Assembly (NCBI RefSeq): GCF_900107125.1 | Contig: NZ_FNOU01000016.1 | Location: 52,163-76,162 of the forward strand | Length of the DNA: 24,000 bases | Origin: Eubacterium barkeri | Lineage (GTDB): Bacteria > Bacillota > Clostridia > Eubacteriales > Eubacteriaceae | Direction of reading: 5' to 3' | Part shown: piece by piece, positions 7,398-12,151 of the stretch | Layout of the letters: each line of letters opens with the position of its first letter | Numbering within the stretch: the stretch's first letter is position 1 | Position numbers and translations under genes: made by a program | Notes under the pieces: model-generated | Database searches by the model: none | Seen by the model: only the letters and a program-made list of their open reading frames with translations | Told to the model about the DNA's origin: nothing

Positions 7398-8258
7398 ATG
7401 TGGGGTATCGTTCTGCTAGGAAATATCTTTGCTTATGGGATGTGTGCGGGGTATATGAATGCAGGAATGACACCGCGTCTGGGCAAGAAGGCAACGGGTA
7501 TTATGTGGCTGTTTTGGGCAATAGGGACCTTTTTGATTGGCCAGAGTGAGGAATTGACAGTATACCGAGGCGCGGCGAATCTTTTGTCCATTCTTTTAAT
7601 GGGTCTGATCTTTTATAAGGGCCGATCATTTTTAGGACGGATTATCTTTGTCGTCAAAATATTCTTAGTGCTTCTTTCTTTTGATGCCATCGTTTTTGGG
7701 GCCTTTTGGCTAACGGGCTGGGAAGCACCGGCAGGTGCTGCGCGTAATATTCGATACTATTTTTATAGTGTATCACTTATTTTGCTAGTCCTTTGTACCT
7801 ACCGGTTCTTTAAACCCTTTGTTGTGGGAACCAATCGGGAGAAGGGTCCTTTGTTCGATTTGATTTTAATATTGGCCTGTGTCGTTGAAGGGATGCCCAT
7901 TCTTTGGATGGATGACTACGTTCATTCGATTAATCCCAATGGGGACGGTTATATTATAGTCTATTTAATACTTATTTTAATCTTTGATGGGGCACTGATC
8001 TATGTGTTTCGGCGGATCAAACGGCAATATCGGCAAGAACAAGATTTAATGCTCCTTAAGCAGCATCAAGACTATCAACAGAATTATTACAAAGCCGTAG
8101 AGGCCCAATACCAACGTTCCAGGGAATTCGTACACGATATGCAAAATCATGTGATGATTCTATCCAGGCTTTATGCCCAGGACGAGGTTGAGCGAGCCCG
8201 GCGTTATGGGGAGTCAGTGCTTCAAAAAATTCCAGAAGCACCCAATGAGCGTCATTAA
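7398..8258 (+). CDS. AgrC/HPK10-type sensor histidine kinase lacking the ATPase domain (membrane sensor plus His-box only)
   Basis: About 6 hydrophobic helices, then a coiled-coil with the H-box REFVHDMQNHVMIL (His codon CAC at 8133-8135). The ORF stops 40 aa later and no N/G boxes follow. GGGAG (7384-7388) lies 9 nt before the ATG at 7398. The ORF-track TTG at 7392 is too close to the RBS. Confidence 0.7.
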   Translation: MWGIVLLGNIFAYGMCAGYMNAGMTPRLGKKATGIMWLFWAIGTFLIGQSEELTVYRGAANLLSILLMGLIFYKGRSFLGRIIFVVKIFLVLLSFDAIVFGAFWLTGWEAPAGAARNIRYYFYSVSLILLVLCTYRFFKPFVVGTNREKGPLFDLILILACVVEGMPILWMDDYVHSINPNGDGYIIVYLILILIFDGALIYVFRRIKRQYRQEQDLMLLKQHQDYQQNYYKAVEAQYQRSREFVHDMQNHVMILSRLYAQDEVERARRYGESVLQKIPEAPNERH

Positions 8259-8287
8259 TTGAGAATAAATACAATACTTTGGAAAAG

Positions 8288-8311
8288 AAAGCATAAGGAA
8301 AAGCATAAGGA
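8288..8311 (+). repeat. Perfect 12-nt tandem duplication AAAGCATAAGGA x2 covering the Shine-Dalgarno region of the LytTR regulator
   Basis: Positions 8288-8299 and 8300-8311 are identical when read base by base. The second copy supplies AAGGAG 8 nt before the ATG at 8320. Confidence 0.9.
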
Positions 8312-8319
8312 GAAATGAT

Positions 8320-9030
8320 ATGTTGACCATTGGTATTTGTGATGACCAGGTGGAAATCATCGATGATCTTGTGGAGCGATTAGAAAATTGGGCAGCGATC
8401 CAGGGCATCCCCCTACAAGTGAGGACCTACACCCGGGGATTGGATTTGTTAGAGGATTATCAAGGGATTGATCTGCTGTTCCTTGATATGAAAATGCCCG
8501 GAGGGGATGGAGGACCCATTGCCCGGGAAATTAAAAGGGAGGACCCCCTTCTGCCCATTGTGTTTATTACGGCTTTTACCCAATACATGCGAATGGCCTT
8601 AGATATCCATGCCTTTGGTTTTCTGGATAAGCCCATTGCCCAAAAGGCCATTGATGACATGATGTCGGACTTTTTACACTATCAGGGGGCTCAAGGGGGG
8701 GAAGCATTGCCTTTTAAAACCAAGGATGGCCTGAGGATGATTTATCCAAAAGACATCCTTTATTTTGAACGTCAGCACCGGGCCATCTATCTGGTTATGT
8801 CAGCAGAACGGTTTTGGATTAATATCCCCACATTATCGGCTGTCATGGATCAGATGGCGGACCATGGCTTCTATCAGATCCACCGAAGCTATATTATATC
8901 CTTAAAGCATATTGTCCGCATTCAGCGGGAGACCGTTCTTCTGGAGAACGGGACGTCTCTCCCTCTGGCAAAGGGCCGGGCCGCTGAATTCAGACAGGTC
9001 TATATGGGACAGATGGAGAAGGGATGGTAA
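8320..9030 (+). CDS. LytTR-family (AgrA/ComE-like) response regulator
   Basis: Receiver domain with acidic pair DD (res 8-9), phospho-acceptor Asp in LLFLDMKMPG and Lys in GFLDKP. C-terminal LytTR domain (ILYFERQHRAIYLV ... FYQIHRSYIISLKHI). Confidence 0.9.
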   Translation: MLTIGICDDQVEIIDDLVERLENWAAIQGIPLQVRTYTRGLDLLEDYQGIDLLFLDMKMPGGDGGPIAREIKREDPLLPIVFITAFTQYMRMALDIHAFGFLDKPIAQKAIDDMMSDFLHYQGAQGGEALPFKTKDGLRMIYPKDILYFERQHRAIYLVMSAERFWINIPTLSAVMDQMADHGFYQIHRSYIISLKHIVRIQRETVLLENGTSLPLAKGRAAEFRQVYMGQMEKGW

Positions 9031-9100
9031 GCATTAGAAGGCTTCCAGAAATATGCGCAATCCGTGGTAGCATCCATGGAGATCATTGTAGGAGGGAGAA

Positions 9101-9955
9101 GTGAATAAAAGAAAGATCAACTGGCTCATTCAGGGAATCTTTATGACCGTGTTGATTATCCTCGAAGTGGTCCCCATGACCTATTTAAATTACTACTATG
9201 TCAAGAATATCCCGGATCGGCAGATTTATATCATGGTATACAGTATGCTGCTTGTTATCTTTGATTTTACCTTGATTTACACCTTCCGGCGTATTAATTT
9301 AAGCTATCAGAAAGAAAATGAGCTTGAGCTCAAGCGACGGGCCGCTGAACTCGAGGCGCATTATTATGAGGATATTGAAAAGCAGCAGGAGGATTACGGC
9401 CACCTTTTTGATGCGATGCGCCGTCAGATCTCCCTGATGGAAGCCCTTAGTGCCAGAGGAGATACCCAGGCGTTACAGCAATGTATGACAACGACCCAGG
9501 ATCTTTTGAAGGCAACGAAGCCACCCTTTACGTGCAGTAACCATACCCTCATGATTGTACTAAGCGATAAATATAAGCGGTGTGTTGCCCTGGGAATTGA
9601 TTTTCAGGTTGACGATGGAACAAGGGGAACCGGTCACTTGTCCGATTTTGATATAACGACGATTTTTGCCAACTTACTGGATAATGCCATTGAGGCATCT
9701 GCAATGGTCGCAGAAGCAAAAATTAGGATAGTATTACGAGAAAAAGGGCAGATGCTGGCTATTACCATTGAGAATCCTTATGATAAAGCACCAGAAGGAA
9801 ACAAGGATGGTTTATTTAAAAGCAGCAAAGAAGATGCCGGCCATGGTTTGGGGTTAAAGAATGTCCAAATGGCGGTAAAGCGGTACGGGGGGAGCATTGA
9901 TTTTGATGCCCGGGATGGATGGTTTATGGTGCGGGTGTTGTTGCCAGTGCTGTAG
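9101..9955 (+). CDS. AgrC-type kinase-like protein with an intact GHKL ATPase domain, only two TM helices and a degenerate His box
   Basis: GTG start 5 nt after GGAGGGAG. N box FANLLDNAIEAS and G box GHGLGLKNV...YGGSI are present. The juxtamembrane segment is paralogous to the upstream truncated kinase, but the H-box position reads YGHLFDAMRRQI, with Asp (GAT 9410-9412) where His is expected. Confidence 0.8.
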   Translation: MNKRKINWLIQGIFMTVLIILEVVPMTYLNYYYVKNIPDRQIYIMVYSMLLVIFDFTLIYTFRRINLSYQKENELELKRRAAELEAHYYEDIEKQQEDYGHLFDAMRRQISLMEALSARGDTQALQQCMTTTQDLLKATKPPFTCSNHTLMIVLSDKYKRCVALGIDFQVDDGTRGTGHLSDFDITTIFANLLDNAIEASAMVAEAKIRIVLREKGQMLAITIENPYDKAPEGNKDGLFKSSKEDAGHGLGLKNVQMAVKRYGGSIDFDARDGWFMVRVLLPVL

Positions 9956-9965
9956 TTTACAGTTT

Positions 9966-11249
9966 TCATTCCGGCATCCCCACCACAATCAAAAACCACC
10001 CATCCTCAATCTGACAGTTTACTGTCCCTCCATAACCTTTGGCGATCTGGCGGATGGTGGACAGGCCAAAACCGTGGTTCCTTTGGTCGGCCTTGGTGGT
10101 TTTGGTTAGACTTTCATTAATTGTCGGGTTTTGACAAGTAATGTACAGTGTTTTGAGTTTAGCATCAAAGGATATTTTGAAAGTGATGGCTGGATCCGTG
10201 ATGGCGCAATGCTCGGTGGCTTCGATGGCATTATCTAAAATATTGGCGCAAATAAAGGACAAATCCAGCTCATCAATCTGATTATTTTCTTGTTCGGGAA
10301 GCGTAATGAGTGTGTTGATCAGGATACCTTTGTTTTTAGCGTTTCGGATTTTAGTGGACAGGACGGCATCCAGCCCTGGATAGCCGGTAAGGGCTAAATA
10401 ATCCTGTTCTGTAACAGTATGGGTGAGAGTGCTGATTAAATCGTTACATTCAGCTAATTTTCCAGCTTTTATCAGTCCGGACAAATGGGAGAGACTGGCG
10501 TTTAAATCATGGCGAATGCGTCGGATTTCATTTTGAGATTGGAGCATATCCGCCTGGTGAAGGCGCTGTGTTTCAATGGTTTTTTCTAAAAATTGGTTAC
10601 GTTGTTTGTCCAGCTCAGAGTCAATGGTATGATTGATGATGTTGATCAGAAGAAGGTTTGATATAAAGACCAGGATAATAATAATAAAACAGAGAGCATA
10701 GGAAACGGTCTCTGAGCCATTTCGGAATATTGCCCACATTAAAAGTGTTAAGATACACAAAGAACAAATCGGATAAAAGACAAGGAGAATATTCTTAGAG
10801 AGGAGTCCCTTCCGTTCTTTGGTCACACGAATAAAGGAAATGAGCATAAAAAAGATGACACTGGTCAGCAGAACCTGAATGACCGTATAAGTGTTTTCCA
10901 CGTTGGTGAAAAAATAAGTCATAGAGATATTGAGTACATTGAGGACAAGGGCTGAAAGAAATTCTGCAACTGAAGTAATAATAATGATTGCCAATGAAAA
11001 GAGGAGCCTTTGCGTTAATGAACATCGATAAAACAGAGTGATTAATAGTATATCACCAATACTGACGATGAGGGATAATACAGCGTGAGCCTGTAAATAA
11101 AACAAAGATTGGGCTAACCCAATGGAGACCAGGAGCATGAAGAGATAGGGAAAAATACTATTACGAATACTCTTCGGCTGACAGAGTACATCAAATCCCA
11201 AAAAGGTGACATAGGTTTTTAGACAAAGGGCAATGGTCAAAAATAGCAT
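9966..11249 (-). CDS. agrC: Full-length AgrC-like sensor histidine kinase (HPK10, GHKL ATPase)
   Basis: Six or seven TM helices, H-box EIRRIRHDLNASLSHL, N box ICANILDNAIEA and G box NHGFGLSTIRQIAKGYGGTV. I prefer the ATG at 11249 (GGAG 6 nt upstream) over the ORF-track TTG at 11261. Confidence 0.85.
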   Translation of the reverse strand: MLFLTIALCLKTYVTFLGFDVLCQPKSIRNSIFPYLFMLLVSIGLAQSLFYLQAHAVLSLIVSIGDILLITLFYRCSLTQRLLFSLAIIIITSVAEFLSALVLNVLNISMTYFFTNVENTYTVIQVLLTSVIFFMLISFIRVTKERKGLLSKNILLVFYPICSLCILTLLMWAIFRNGSETVSYALCFIIIILVFISNLLLINIINHTIDSELDKQRNQFLEKTIETQRLHQADMLQSQNEIRRIRHDLNASLSHLSGLIKAGKLAECNDLISTLTHTVTEQDYLALTGYPGLDAVLSTKIRNAKNKGILINTLITLPEQENNQIDELDLSFICANILDNAIEATEHCAITDPAITFKISFDAKLKTLYITCQNPTINESLTKTTKADQRNHGFGLSTIRQIAKGYGGTVNCQIEDGWFLIVVGMPE

Positions 11250-11278
11250 TAGAAACTCCAAACTTTTCTTTTTCTTAA

Positions 11279-11307
11279 ATTATAACCAGGAAATCTAAAA
11301 AATTCAA
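11279..11307 (-). promoter_or_regulatory. Candidate sigma-A promoter for the agrC-like gene
   Basis: Minus strand reads TTGAAT (complement of 11302-11307), a 17-nt spacer, then TATAAT (complement of 11279-11284), about 30 nt upstream of the ATG at 11249. Confidence 0.55.
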
Positions 11308-11345
11308 TTCATTATGACGAAAAACTTTACGATTAGGCAAGGGGG

Positions 11346-11373
11346 TTGGCTTTTTAGAAAAAGGTGATAAAAT
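11346..11373 (+). promoter_or_regulatory. Candidate promoter for agrD-agrB
   Basis: TTGGCT (11346-11351), 16-nt spacer, then extended -10 TGATAAAAT (11365-11373). It lies about 30 nt upstream of the agrD ATG. Confidence 0.35.
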
Positions 11374-11405
11374 AGATTTAAAATATTGACCATCGGGAGG
11401 TTATT

Positions 11406-11564
11406 ATGAAATTGAAAAGTTTAAAAGCAGCCGTTTTGAAACATGCCTGTTGGCTCTCTGCTTTAGTCGTTCTGTTGGCCCAGAATTCAGATACGTGTTT
11501 TTTTATTTCCCACCAACCTAAGTTACCGGAAGGTGCAAAAGATTTTTTCATTGATGAATTATGA
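11406..11564 (+). CDS. agrD: AgrD-type cyclic-lactone autoinducing peptide precursor (52 aa; not in the supplied ORF track)
   Basis: ATG at 11406 with GGGAGG (11395-11400) 5 nt upstream. My translation: MKLKSLKAAVLKHACWLSALVVLLAQNSDTCFFISHQPKLPEGAKDFFIDEL. It has a basic/hydrophobic leader, Cys31 (TGT 11496-11498) heading the 5-residue segment CFFIS, then an HQPxxPE acidic tail. The TGA stop (11562-11564) overlaps the agrB ATG (11561-11563). Confidence 0.75.
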   Translation: MKLKSLKAAVLKHACWLSALVVLLAQNSDTCFFISHQPKLPEGAKDFFIDEL

Positions 11565-12151
11565 TTAAACAATGGGGCCAGCAGATGGCGGCGGTGTGTT
11601 GCCGGGAAGGGGTACTTAAGGAAAAAAACCGTGAAGCCATTGCCTTTGGCTTTGAGGAGTTAATCTTCGTACTCATCAATCTTGTGGTCATTGCCACGAT
11701 TGCAGCGTTCACCCAGGCGTTACTAAATGCCCTCATTTTCTGCGTTATCTACTTGTCCCTTGTTCGGCTTGTTGGGATTTATCATGCAAAAACCCGGAAG
11801 GGATGCTTCATCAAGACCATGATTGTCTTTGTAGCCTATCTTCTGATTATGAGAGGGGTACCCTCGGATTATTATGTCATTGGCAGCCTGGGAAGCTTTT
11901 TATTCTATCTGATAACAGCCTGGTCCCTGACTCCTGTCATGCATATCGATAAGCCCCTGACGGAGGAGCAAAAGGCCCTTAATCGAAAAAAGGCTCTGAT
12001 CTATTCCATGGTTTTTGTCGCAATTGGAGGGGTGTTTTTCATGGTGGGGTGGTGGCAGCCGTTATTTGCCATGGCGGTCACTCTGGATATGGTGGCATTG
12101 ATGGCGATTTTGGGCTATCTGTTCAATGAACGGGCACCCATTGAAGTCTAG
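11561..12151 (+). CDS. agrB: AgrB-family membrane peptidase (autoinducer precursor processing)
   Basis: 196 aa polytopic membrane protein. It carries the AgrB catalytic pair in GIYHAKTRKGC (His75, Cys82), 7 residues apart as recalled for S. aureus AgrB His77/Cys84. It is translationally coupled to the agrD-like ORF. Confidence 0.85.
   Translation: MIKQWGQQMAAVCCREGVLKEKNREAIAFGFEELIFVLINLVVIATIAAFTQALLNALIFCVIYLSLVRLVGIYHAKTRKGCFIKTMIVFVAYLLIMRGVPSDYYVIGSLGSFLFYLITAWSLTPVMHIDKPLTEEQKALNRKKALIYSMVFVAIGGVFFMVGWWQPLFAMAVTLDMVALMAILGYLFNERAPIEV

Follow-up and report, generated by a model that had tools for sequence, protein, structure and literature searches.

A chromosomal agr-type quorum-sensing module without an adjacent agrA in Eubacterium barkeri

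Genes of the agr locus

A 24,000-nucleotide (nt) stretch of the Eubacterium barkeri genome (contig NZ_FNOU01000016.1, positions 52,163 to 76,162 of the forward strand), hereafter called the window and numbered from its first letter, carries three adjacent genes that, as judged by family models and a match to a solved structure, are a genuine chromosomal quorum-sensing module of the agr type, which signals through a cyclic peptide. These are agrC1 (9966-11249, minus strand), encoding an AgrC-type receptor histidine kinase of the HPK10 family; agrD1 (11406-11564, plus strand), encoding the precursor of the autoinducing peptide; and agrB1 (11561-12151, plus strand), encoding an AgrB membrane cysteine endopeptidase/cyclase. 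The genes agrC1 and agrD1 diverge from a 156-nt control region (11250-11405). We find this locus to be an ordinary agr module, the sole unusual point being the lack of an agrA beside the receptor gene, for which there are published precedents.

The 196-residue AgrB1 scored 77.5 bits against PF04647 (cutoff 23) and had 1765 relatives at E-values of 0.001 or less in a representative library, and its residues H75 and C82 were invariant in an alignment of 37 homologs; the catalytic His and Cys of Staphylococcus aureus AgrB, H77 and C84, are likewise seven residues apart. The 52-residue AgrD1 matched TIGR04223 with 24.5 bits (cutoff 19) and has a predicted ring, C31-F-F-I-S35, followed by the proline-containing tail HQPKLPE; the ring of its orthologs reads either CFFIS or CFLIS. 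AgrC1 (427 residues) has about seven hydrophobic segments within residues 1-205, as judged by hydropathy, followed by an H-box (IRRIRH247DLN, whose His247 falls in the column of a kinase alignment that is invariably His) and a GHKL ATPase domain (75 bits against HATPase_c_5); among solved structures it is closest to the AgrC kinase module of S. aureus, 6e52 (E-value 5e-8). There was no match between AgrC1 and the NCBIfam equivalog for staphylococcal AgrC, NF046015; however, this model is genus-specific and the result was not counted against an AgrC-like function. As a GGAG lies 7 nt upstream of the ATG at 11249, we preferred this codon over the TTG at 11261 as the agrC1 start.

Much of this had been proposed in a first-pass annotation made from the DNA sequence without database searches, and its identification of agrD, agrB and an AgrC-like kinase is borne out by the family models and the 6e52 match. 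It had also described agrD as preceding agrB and translationally coupled to it, and the agrD1 stop codon (11562-11564) does overlap the agrB1 ATG (starting at 11561) on the same strand, as an ATGA at 11561-11564. Likewise correct were its statements that 10 bp separate the end of agrC from the stop of a convergent gene (positions 9966 and 9955, respectively) and that neither unit contains an agrA: we found no gene for a REC plus LytTR protein co-transcribed with agrC1 in the window or in eight related assemblies. With agrC, agrD and agrB present and no regulator in the unit, the locus qualifies as an agrA-less agr locus. The sole response regulator of the window, with both Response_reg and LytTR domains, is encoded at 8320-9030, and domain matches confirmed the earlier claim that this is the only LytTR regulator present.

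The agrD1 and agrB1 genes make up an operon for signal production in which the two are translationally coupled. If AgrB1 acts as in S. aureus, it would use His75 and Cys82 to cleave AgrD1 behind Ser35 and form the Cys31-Ser35 thiolactone, C-F-F-I-S, which would be sensed by AgrC1 as the cognate, polytopic HPK10 receptor kinase, transcribed divergently.

The agrC-agrD control region

Both promoters and both ribosome-binding sites (GGAG for agrC1, GGGAGG for agrD1) lie within the 156 nt between the two genes. A promoter scan placed the agrC1 promoter at 11307..11279 on the minus strand (TTGAAT-17-TATAAT, matching the consensus at 10 of 12 positions) and a weaker agrD1 promoter at 11346-11373 on the plus strand (TTGGCT-16-TGaTAAAAT), in line with the earlier description of back-to-back promoters with the stronger on the agrC side; in such AT-rich DNA promoter-like matches are not rarer than chance (14 found versus 10.8 expected). 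The hexamers of the agrC1 promoter and the -35 element of agrD1 were invariant in six strains, the -10 of agrD1 being TAGAAT in one of them. The intergenic region differed from that of five other strains at only 3-6 of its 156 nt, with no difference at all in 11250-11318 on the agrC side, despite synonymous divergence (dS) of 0.22-0.46 in the flanking genes, which points to strong constraint on promoters and leaders alike. What variation there is lies in the agrD promoter, the agrD leader and the central spacer, the last being where one would look for a shared activator site. The agrC1 promoter, conserved and near-consensus, is probably constitutive.

As in the first-pass annotation, we found no paired 9-bp repeats of the LytTR type in this region: the best of the 9-mer direct repeats at 19-23 bp spacing, a 7/9 match in an A-run, was equaled in 664 of 1000 shuffles. 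A candidate cis element common to the intergenic regions of this locus (agr-1) and of the paralogous agr-2 locus described below, TTACGATTAGGCAA versus TTATGATTATGCAA (12/14), was rejected as being at chance level, its score being reached in 139 of 300 shuffles. As far as motif searches can tell, then, there is no detectable autoinduction site in the agrC-agrD intergenic region. The window also gave no Rfam match, either to an RNAIII-like RNA or to any other known RNA.

Conservation among close relatives

The window DNA is 88-94% identical to assemblies, metagenome-assembled genomes among them, that are labelled Eubacterium aggregans or Eubacterium sp., eight of which (L001, L017, L018, L020-L023 and L032) have the same agrA-less cluster between rsmF and hisIE; in none of these eight does a regulator gene follow agrC. 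A metagenome scan with AgrC1 added one 1.9-kb contig and no new context. Substitution patterns indicate that all genes of the cluster are under purifying selection, with ratios of nonsynonymous to synonymous substitution rates (dN/dS) of 0.04-0.17 for AgrD, 0.11-0.15 for AgrB and 0.06 for AgrC, the last over the whole length in six strains. All AgrC1 copies not cut by a contig end are 427 residues long and free of lesions. One agrD copy is interrupted, with an element of the IS256 family (L020 10652-12151; two Transposase_mut open reading frames, ORFs) in codon 6, flanked by the 8-bp target duplication TGAAAAGT.

These results bear on whether the locus has any signaling output of its own. AgrC1 might be a regulator-less remnant, at most a peptide sink or phosphatase, with the agrD1-agrB1 peptide serving only for interference with other strains; this would fit with the lack of an agrA in either unit, the lack of an autoinduction motif and the constitutive look of the promoters. 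However, the dN/dS of 0.06 extends over the H-box and ATPase motifs of AgrC1 and there are no lesions in the full-length copies, from which we argue that AgrC1 is an active kinase with a partner, and we regard a locus without output as very unlikely.

Gene order in relatives and in published agr loci

In the first-pass annotation the agrD-before-agrB order had been put forward as a non-canonical layout, with a comparison of gene neighborhoods named beforehand as the test of its novelty. For this comparison a 5-sequence AgrB alignment was used as query against one genome per species, which returned 14 agrB loci, a sample biased by its query toward AgrBs carrying GxYHAKTR. In 12 of the 14 an agrD lies directly upstream of agrB, the two usually being 1-4 nt apart or overlapping; nine of the upstream ORFs passed TIGR04223, and the tenth ORF tested, which is downstream of agrB (in L008), failed. 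The Lachnospiraceae loci read agrA, agrC, agrD, agrB, as does the published agr2 locus of Clostridioides difficile R20291 (PMC3754575). Among the relatives of AgrC1 one also finds agrB ahead of agrD, in the agrA-agrC-agrB-agrD locus at 5293-8137 of L026. This L026 locus is on a conjugative element with TrbL, PrgI and TraG-like genes, and its AgrD resembles that of the window.

The novelty of the layout therefore fails, since most members of this AgrB clade have agrD ahead of agrB, while the annotation of the genes is unaffected. The closest paralog also has a divergent agrC, although there it comes with an agrA, and kinase-bearing loci lacking agrA have been published. On comparative evidence, D-before-B with a divergent agrC is the ordinary layout for this branch.

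Two of the published agrA-less loci are instructive. C. difficile agr3 (phage phiCDHM1) consists of agrC, agrB and agrD without agrA, and its authors proposed that it makes use of an AgrA encoded elsewhere (PMC3901668). Like the window it combines a kinase with signal-production genes and no response regulator, and its association with a phage or with mobile DNA recalls the paralogous agr-2; however, its B and D genes differ in order and orientation, and the window copy is chromosomal (rsmF-hisIE) and conserved across strains. Agr system 1 of C. autoethanogenum, agrD1-agrC1-agrB1, similarly has the precursor gene first, a kinase of its own and no agrA in the operon, the partner regulator being presumed to lie elsewhere (PMC8748961), but there D and B flank a co-directional agrC, whereas the window has a coupled D-B pair and a divergent C.

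Comparison with other systems gave a similar mixture. C. difficile R20291 agr2 shares with the window the agrD directly upstream of agrB, the HPK10 kinase and LytTR regulator families and the lack of a known RNAIII-like effector; however, its agrA and agrC lie upstream on the same strand, the whole locus being regarded as one transcript (PMC3754575), whereas the agrC of the window is divergent with no agrA attached. The window does have a co-directional regulator/kinase operon (7398-9955) farther upstream of agrD-agrB. The S. aureus agrBDCA locus with its P2 and P3 promoters has the same four protein families, the same AgrB His/Cys pair and the same Cys+4 ring geometry, but another gene order, and the window lacks the agrA, the AgrA 9-12-9 boxes and the RNAIII of that system. 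For a separation of signal genes from the responding regulator there are the C. perfringens agrBD genes, which work with VirS/VirR (PMC7492741), and C. difficile Agr1 with RgaS/RgaR (PMC10602386), both with unlinked two-component partners in separate operons, as we propose for the window, although these loci have no kinase of their own and the window keeps its agrC.

The paralogous agr-2 locus

The closest paralog of the locus is agr-2 (L003 575-8576, and L028-L031), in which agrC2 and agrA2 are transcribed in one direction and agrD2 and agrB2 divergently from them, with a 4-nt agrD2/agrB2 overlap as in the window and with agrA2 overlapping agrC2. AgrC1 is 44% identical to AgrC2 of L003 over its whole length and AgrB1 is 47% identical to AgrB2; the ring and tail of AgrD2 read CLFFS-YQPEIPE. 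At 34% GC, agr-2 adjoins holin, endolysin and sigma-factor genes, and AgrA2 and AgrB2 match PHROG families, although IMG/VR scans with AgrC2 and AgrC1 found no copy. We consider agr-2 to be probably prophage-borne, a placement based on the neighboring holin and endolysin genes. In E. aggregans SR12 (L002 152-867) there is an agrD2-agrB2 pair that is 100% identical to that of L003, where agrC2-agrA2 are also present; the species does, then, have an agrA with an AgrC paralog as its partner. By analogy with C. difficile agr3 and C. autoethanogenum system 1, the chromosomal copy in the window is best described as an agr-2-like module minus agrA.

The convergent operon

The operon convergent with agrC1 (7398-9955, plus strand) is more than a simple second set of kinases. 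Lying outside the agr units, it consists of HKN (7398-8258, 286 residues), a membrane sensor with a His-bearing DHp and no ATPase domain; the gene for the LytTR-family response regulator (8320-9030, plus strand), whose 236-residue product is intact and scored 57.5 bits to Response_reg and 55.7 bits to LytTR; HKN' (9041-9108, plus strand), what remains, at the 3' end, of a second sensor gene lacking the ATPase domain; and HKC (9101-9955, 284 residues), a His-less GHKL ATPase subunit with 84 bits to HATPase_c_5.

HKN had no match to a Pfam kinase domain; nevertheless, its DHp motif, FVH246DMQNH, contains the His that was the sole invariant column in an alignment of 43 kinases. Its AlphaFold2 model, for which there was no significant structural match in the PDB, has six transmembrane helices, then one long (182-260) and one short helix (264-277), after which the protein ends, i.e., at the DHp/ATPase boundary. 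We considered HKN as a recent pseudogene, which is ruled out by an architecture of 286-288 residues that persists in orthologs down to 62% identity with a dN/dS of 0.13-0.26. The sensor part of HKN (window 7398-8000 versus L017 5662-6270) is only 47-68% identical, whereas the two strains share 93% identity in the H-box region and about 90% in the flanking genes; dS in this comparison is saturated, at 1.6. This hypervariability is reminiscent of agr specificity groups, yet it does not track the sequence of the AgrD ring.

HKC has the complementary composition: two transmembrane helices and a DHp-like hairpin with Asp in the phospho-acceptor column (LFD46AM; Asp in 4/4 orthologs), followed by an ATPase domain that keeps all of the invariant residues (N191, N195, A196, N225, H248, G249 and G251). 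The best match of its AlphaFold2 model was S. aureus AgrC (6e95/6e52, E-value 7e-10), and its dN/dS is 0.12-0.14. In L017, HKC (8102-8521) has an internal deletion corresponding to window 9388-9813 that removes most of the ATPase domain, with HKN, HKN' and the regulator intact. In the sister strains L001, L017, L018, L023 and L032, HKN' is a 292-residue protein, 32% identical to HKN, whose gene separates those of the regulator and HKC, the HKN' stop codon overlapping the HKC start, an overlap that the window remnant still keeps. About 811 nt of HKN' are deleted in the window and in L020-L022, collinearity of the window with L018, L023 and L001 breaking at 9033/9041.

The complementary defects of HKN and HKC, a pattern conserved under purifying selection in all strains, suggest a natural split HPK10 kinase. 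Split kinases are known from Rhodobacter sphaeroides, in which CheA3 and CheA4 act together, one protein supplying the His to be phosphorylated and its partner the kinase domain. The complementary defects are alike in the two cases; however, CheA3 and CheA4 are cytoplasmic kinases of the CheA class and not membrane HPK10 sensors, and a joint function of HKN and HKC is putative. The likeness concerns HKN and HKC only.

The regulator gene has its own peculiarity, a homopolymer tract in the REC-LytTR linker (8695-8701, plus strand) whose length varies between strains: it is G7, and in frame, in the window, with frameshifting G8 in L022 and G9 in L021 and L023. Together with a G5-to-G4 frameshift near 8509 in L018 and L032 and a nonsense mutation in L020, this leaves the regulator disrupted in six of the eight strains in which it is visible, and most database copies, type-strain proteins included, are fragments. 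Such lesions could be due to phase variation or to recurrent loss. Just upstream of the regulator start, a 12-nt exact tandem duplication, AAAGCATAAGGA, at 8288-8311 spans the ribosome-binding site; it is present as a single copy in L017 and L018. Upstream of HKN, the repeat TGGGTCGGC/TGTGTCGGC (7300/7323, spacing 23; 44 of 1000 shuffles) was considered as an operator and rejected, because its first copy belongs to the terminator hairpin of rsmF, as the 3' arm, and L021 does not keep the pair.

Taken as a whole, 7398-9955 might encode HKN and HKN' as interchangeable sensors phosphorylated in trans by a shared HKC, with a LytTR regulator gated by a slippery poly-G, and AgrC1 could feed the same regulator, making for a multi-input peptide-sensing hub; we offer this full scheme as speculation, and think it unlikely. 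At the junction with agrC1 an inverted repeat covers both convergent stop codons (9927-9985, -23.2 kcal/mol; z -2.7 on the plus and -1.5 on the minus strand), formed by the C-terminal coding ends of HKC and AgrC1 (DGWF..V..P), which are paralogous and face each other. Since there is no T-run terminator between the two genes, their transcripts may overlap.

Candidate response regulators for AgrC1

The question of which regulator receives the AgrC1 signal was approached through neighbor-joining trees of the kinases and regulators. AgrC1 falls in a kinase clade with AgrC2, P0157 and P0158, and the regulators that adjoin kinases of this clade, i.e., AgrA2, those of L024 and L025 and the downstream regulator of L002, form a clade of their own. 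The 8320-9030 regulator and HKC group not with this AgrA2 set but with the pairs of the Lachnospiraceae agrA-agrC-agrD-agrB loci. The H-box signatures split likewise (RHDLxxSLxHLxGL versus HDxxxHxxxxxxLY), as do the REC alpha-1 signatures.

Given this mismatch of lineage, the lesions in the regulator as against an intact AgrC, and the occurrence of agr-2 in E. aggregans SR12, we prefer a partner encoded elsewhere in the genome: AgrC1 would pass its phosphate to an AgrA2-type LytTR regulator, and the 8320-9030 regulator would belong with the HKN/HKN'/HKC operon. We put the chance that the output of AgrC1 is such an unlinked AgrA2-type regulator, rather than 8320-9030, at about even.

Several points weigh against this preference. 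Within the window, which is the part of this strain's genome that was covered, there is no AgrA2-type regulator. The trees were built by neighbor-joining from very divergent sequences (distances of 0.8-0.9) and have no support values, and with AgrC1 and AgrC2 just 44% identical a shared specificity is not implied. The adjacency of agrC1 and the regulator is kept in every strain, although all of these are close relatives. L017, with its regulator intact and its HKC deleted, has AgrC1 as the sole complete kinase of the cluster, and L020 has lost both agrD, by its insertion, and the regulator. Finally, the regulator lesions are recent and, being in part homopolymer slippage, partly reversible, and by analogy with agr-defective variants of S. 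aureus they do not prove independence from AgrC1.

Some of these same observations would be explained if AgrC1 had been rewired to the adjacent 8320-9030 regulator, as the first-pass annotation thought probable, such that autoinducer sensing and the HKN/HKN'/HKC set converge on a multi-input hub. Neither the window nor any of the syntenic clusters has another regulator, this one belongs to the LytTR type used by HPK10 kinases, and in all other close relatives of AgrC1 a regulator gene is adjacent; its intact state in L017 despite the HKC deletion and the double lesion of L020 also fit. However, this wiring runs against the split between lineages in the trees, H-boxes and REC alpha-1 signatures, and against the disruption of the regulator in six of eight strains and in the type strain, while agrC1, agrD1 and agrB1 are intact and constrained. 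There are also no regulator-type repeats in the agr promoters, and synteny among genomes that are 88-94% identical is weak evidence. On these sequence comparisons, signaling from AgrC1 to 8320-9030 is somewhat disfavored, and we see the rewired hub as possible but rather doubtful.

The grouping of the regulator and HKC with AgrA and AgrC of the Lachnospiraceae loci raises a further possibility, that this is a disguised locus of the C. difficile agr2 type. The 8320-9030 regulator would then be the AgrA, the AgrD1 peptide would be sensed by HKN'/HKC (with HKN) as the original, split AgrC, and the inverted agrC1 would have been inserted later, with agrC on one side and agrD on the other; if agrC1 is left out, the order is indeed regulator, kinase, agrD, agrB, as in the Lachnospiraceae loci and C. 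difficile agr2. However, AgrB1 and AgrD1 are closest to AgrB2 and AgrD2 (47% identity to AgrB2 versus 24-29% to the Lachnospiraceae AgrBs) and therefore travel with the AgrC1/AgrC2 lineage, and there is no co-variation between the HKN sensor, hypervariable at 47-68% identity, and the AgrD ring, which is nearly constant. We judge such an origin to be quite unlikely, and an unlinked AgrA2-type partner remains our preferred reading.

Implications

The staphylococcal B-D-C-A order is not a reference for the Clostridia; D before B is the rule in this branch, and kinase-only loci without agrA recur. Because both the D-B order and agrA-less loci recur in the Clostridia, the layout alone is no sign of new wiring. 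If confirmed, the split-kinase set with its homopolymer-variable regulator would be of interest to researchers of two-component systems. In addition, an agrA-less chromosomal module together with an agrA-bearing, probably prophage-borne paralog would offer a tractable system in which to ask if a phage and its host use a common quorum signal pathway.

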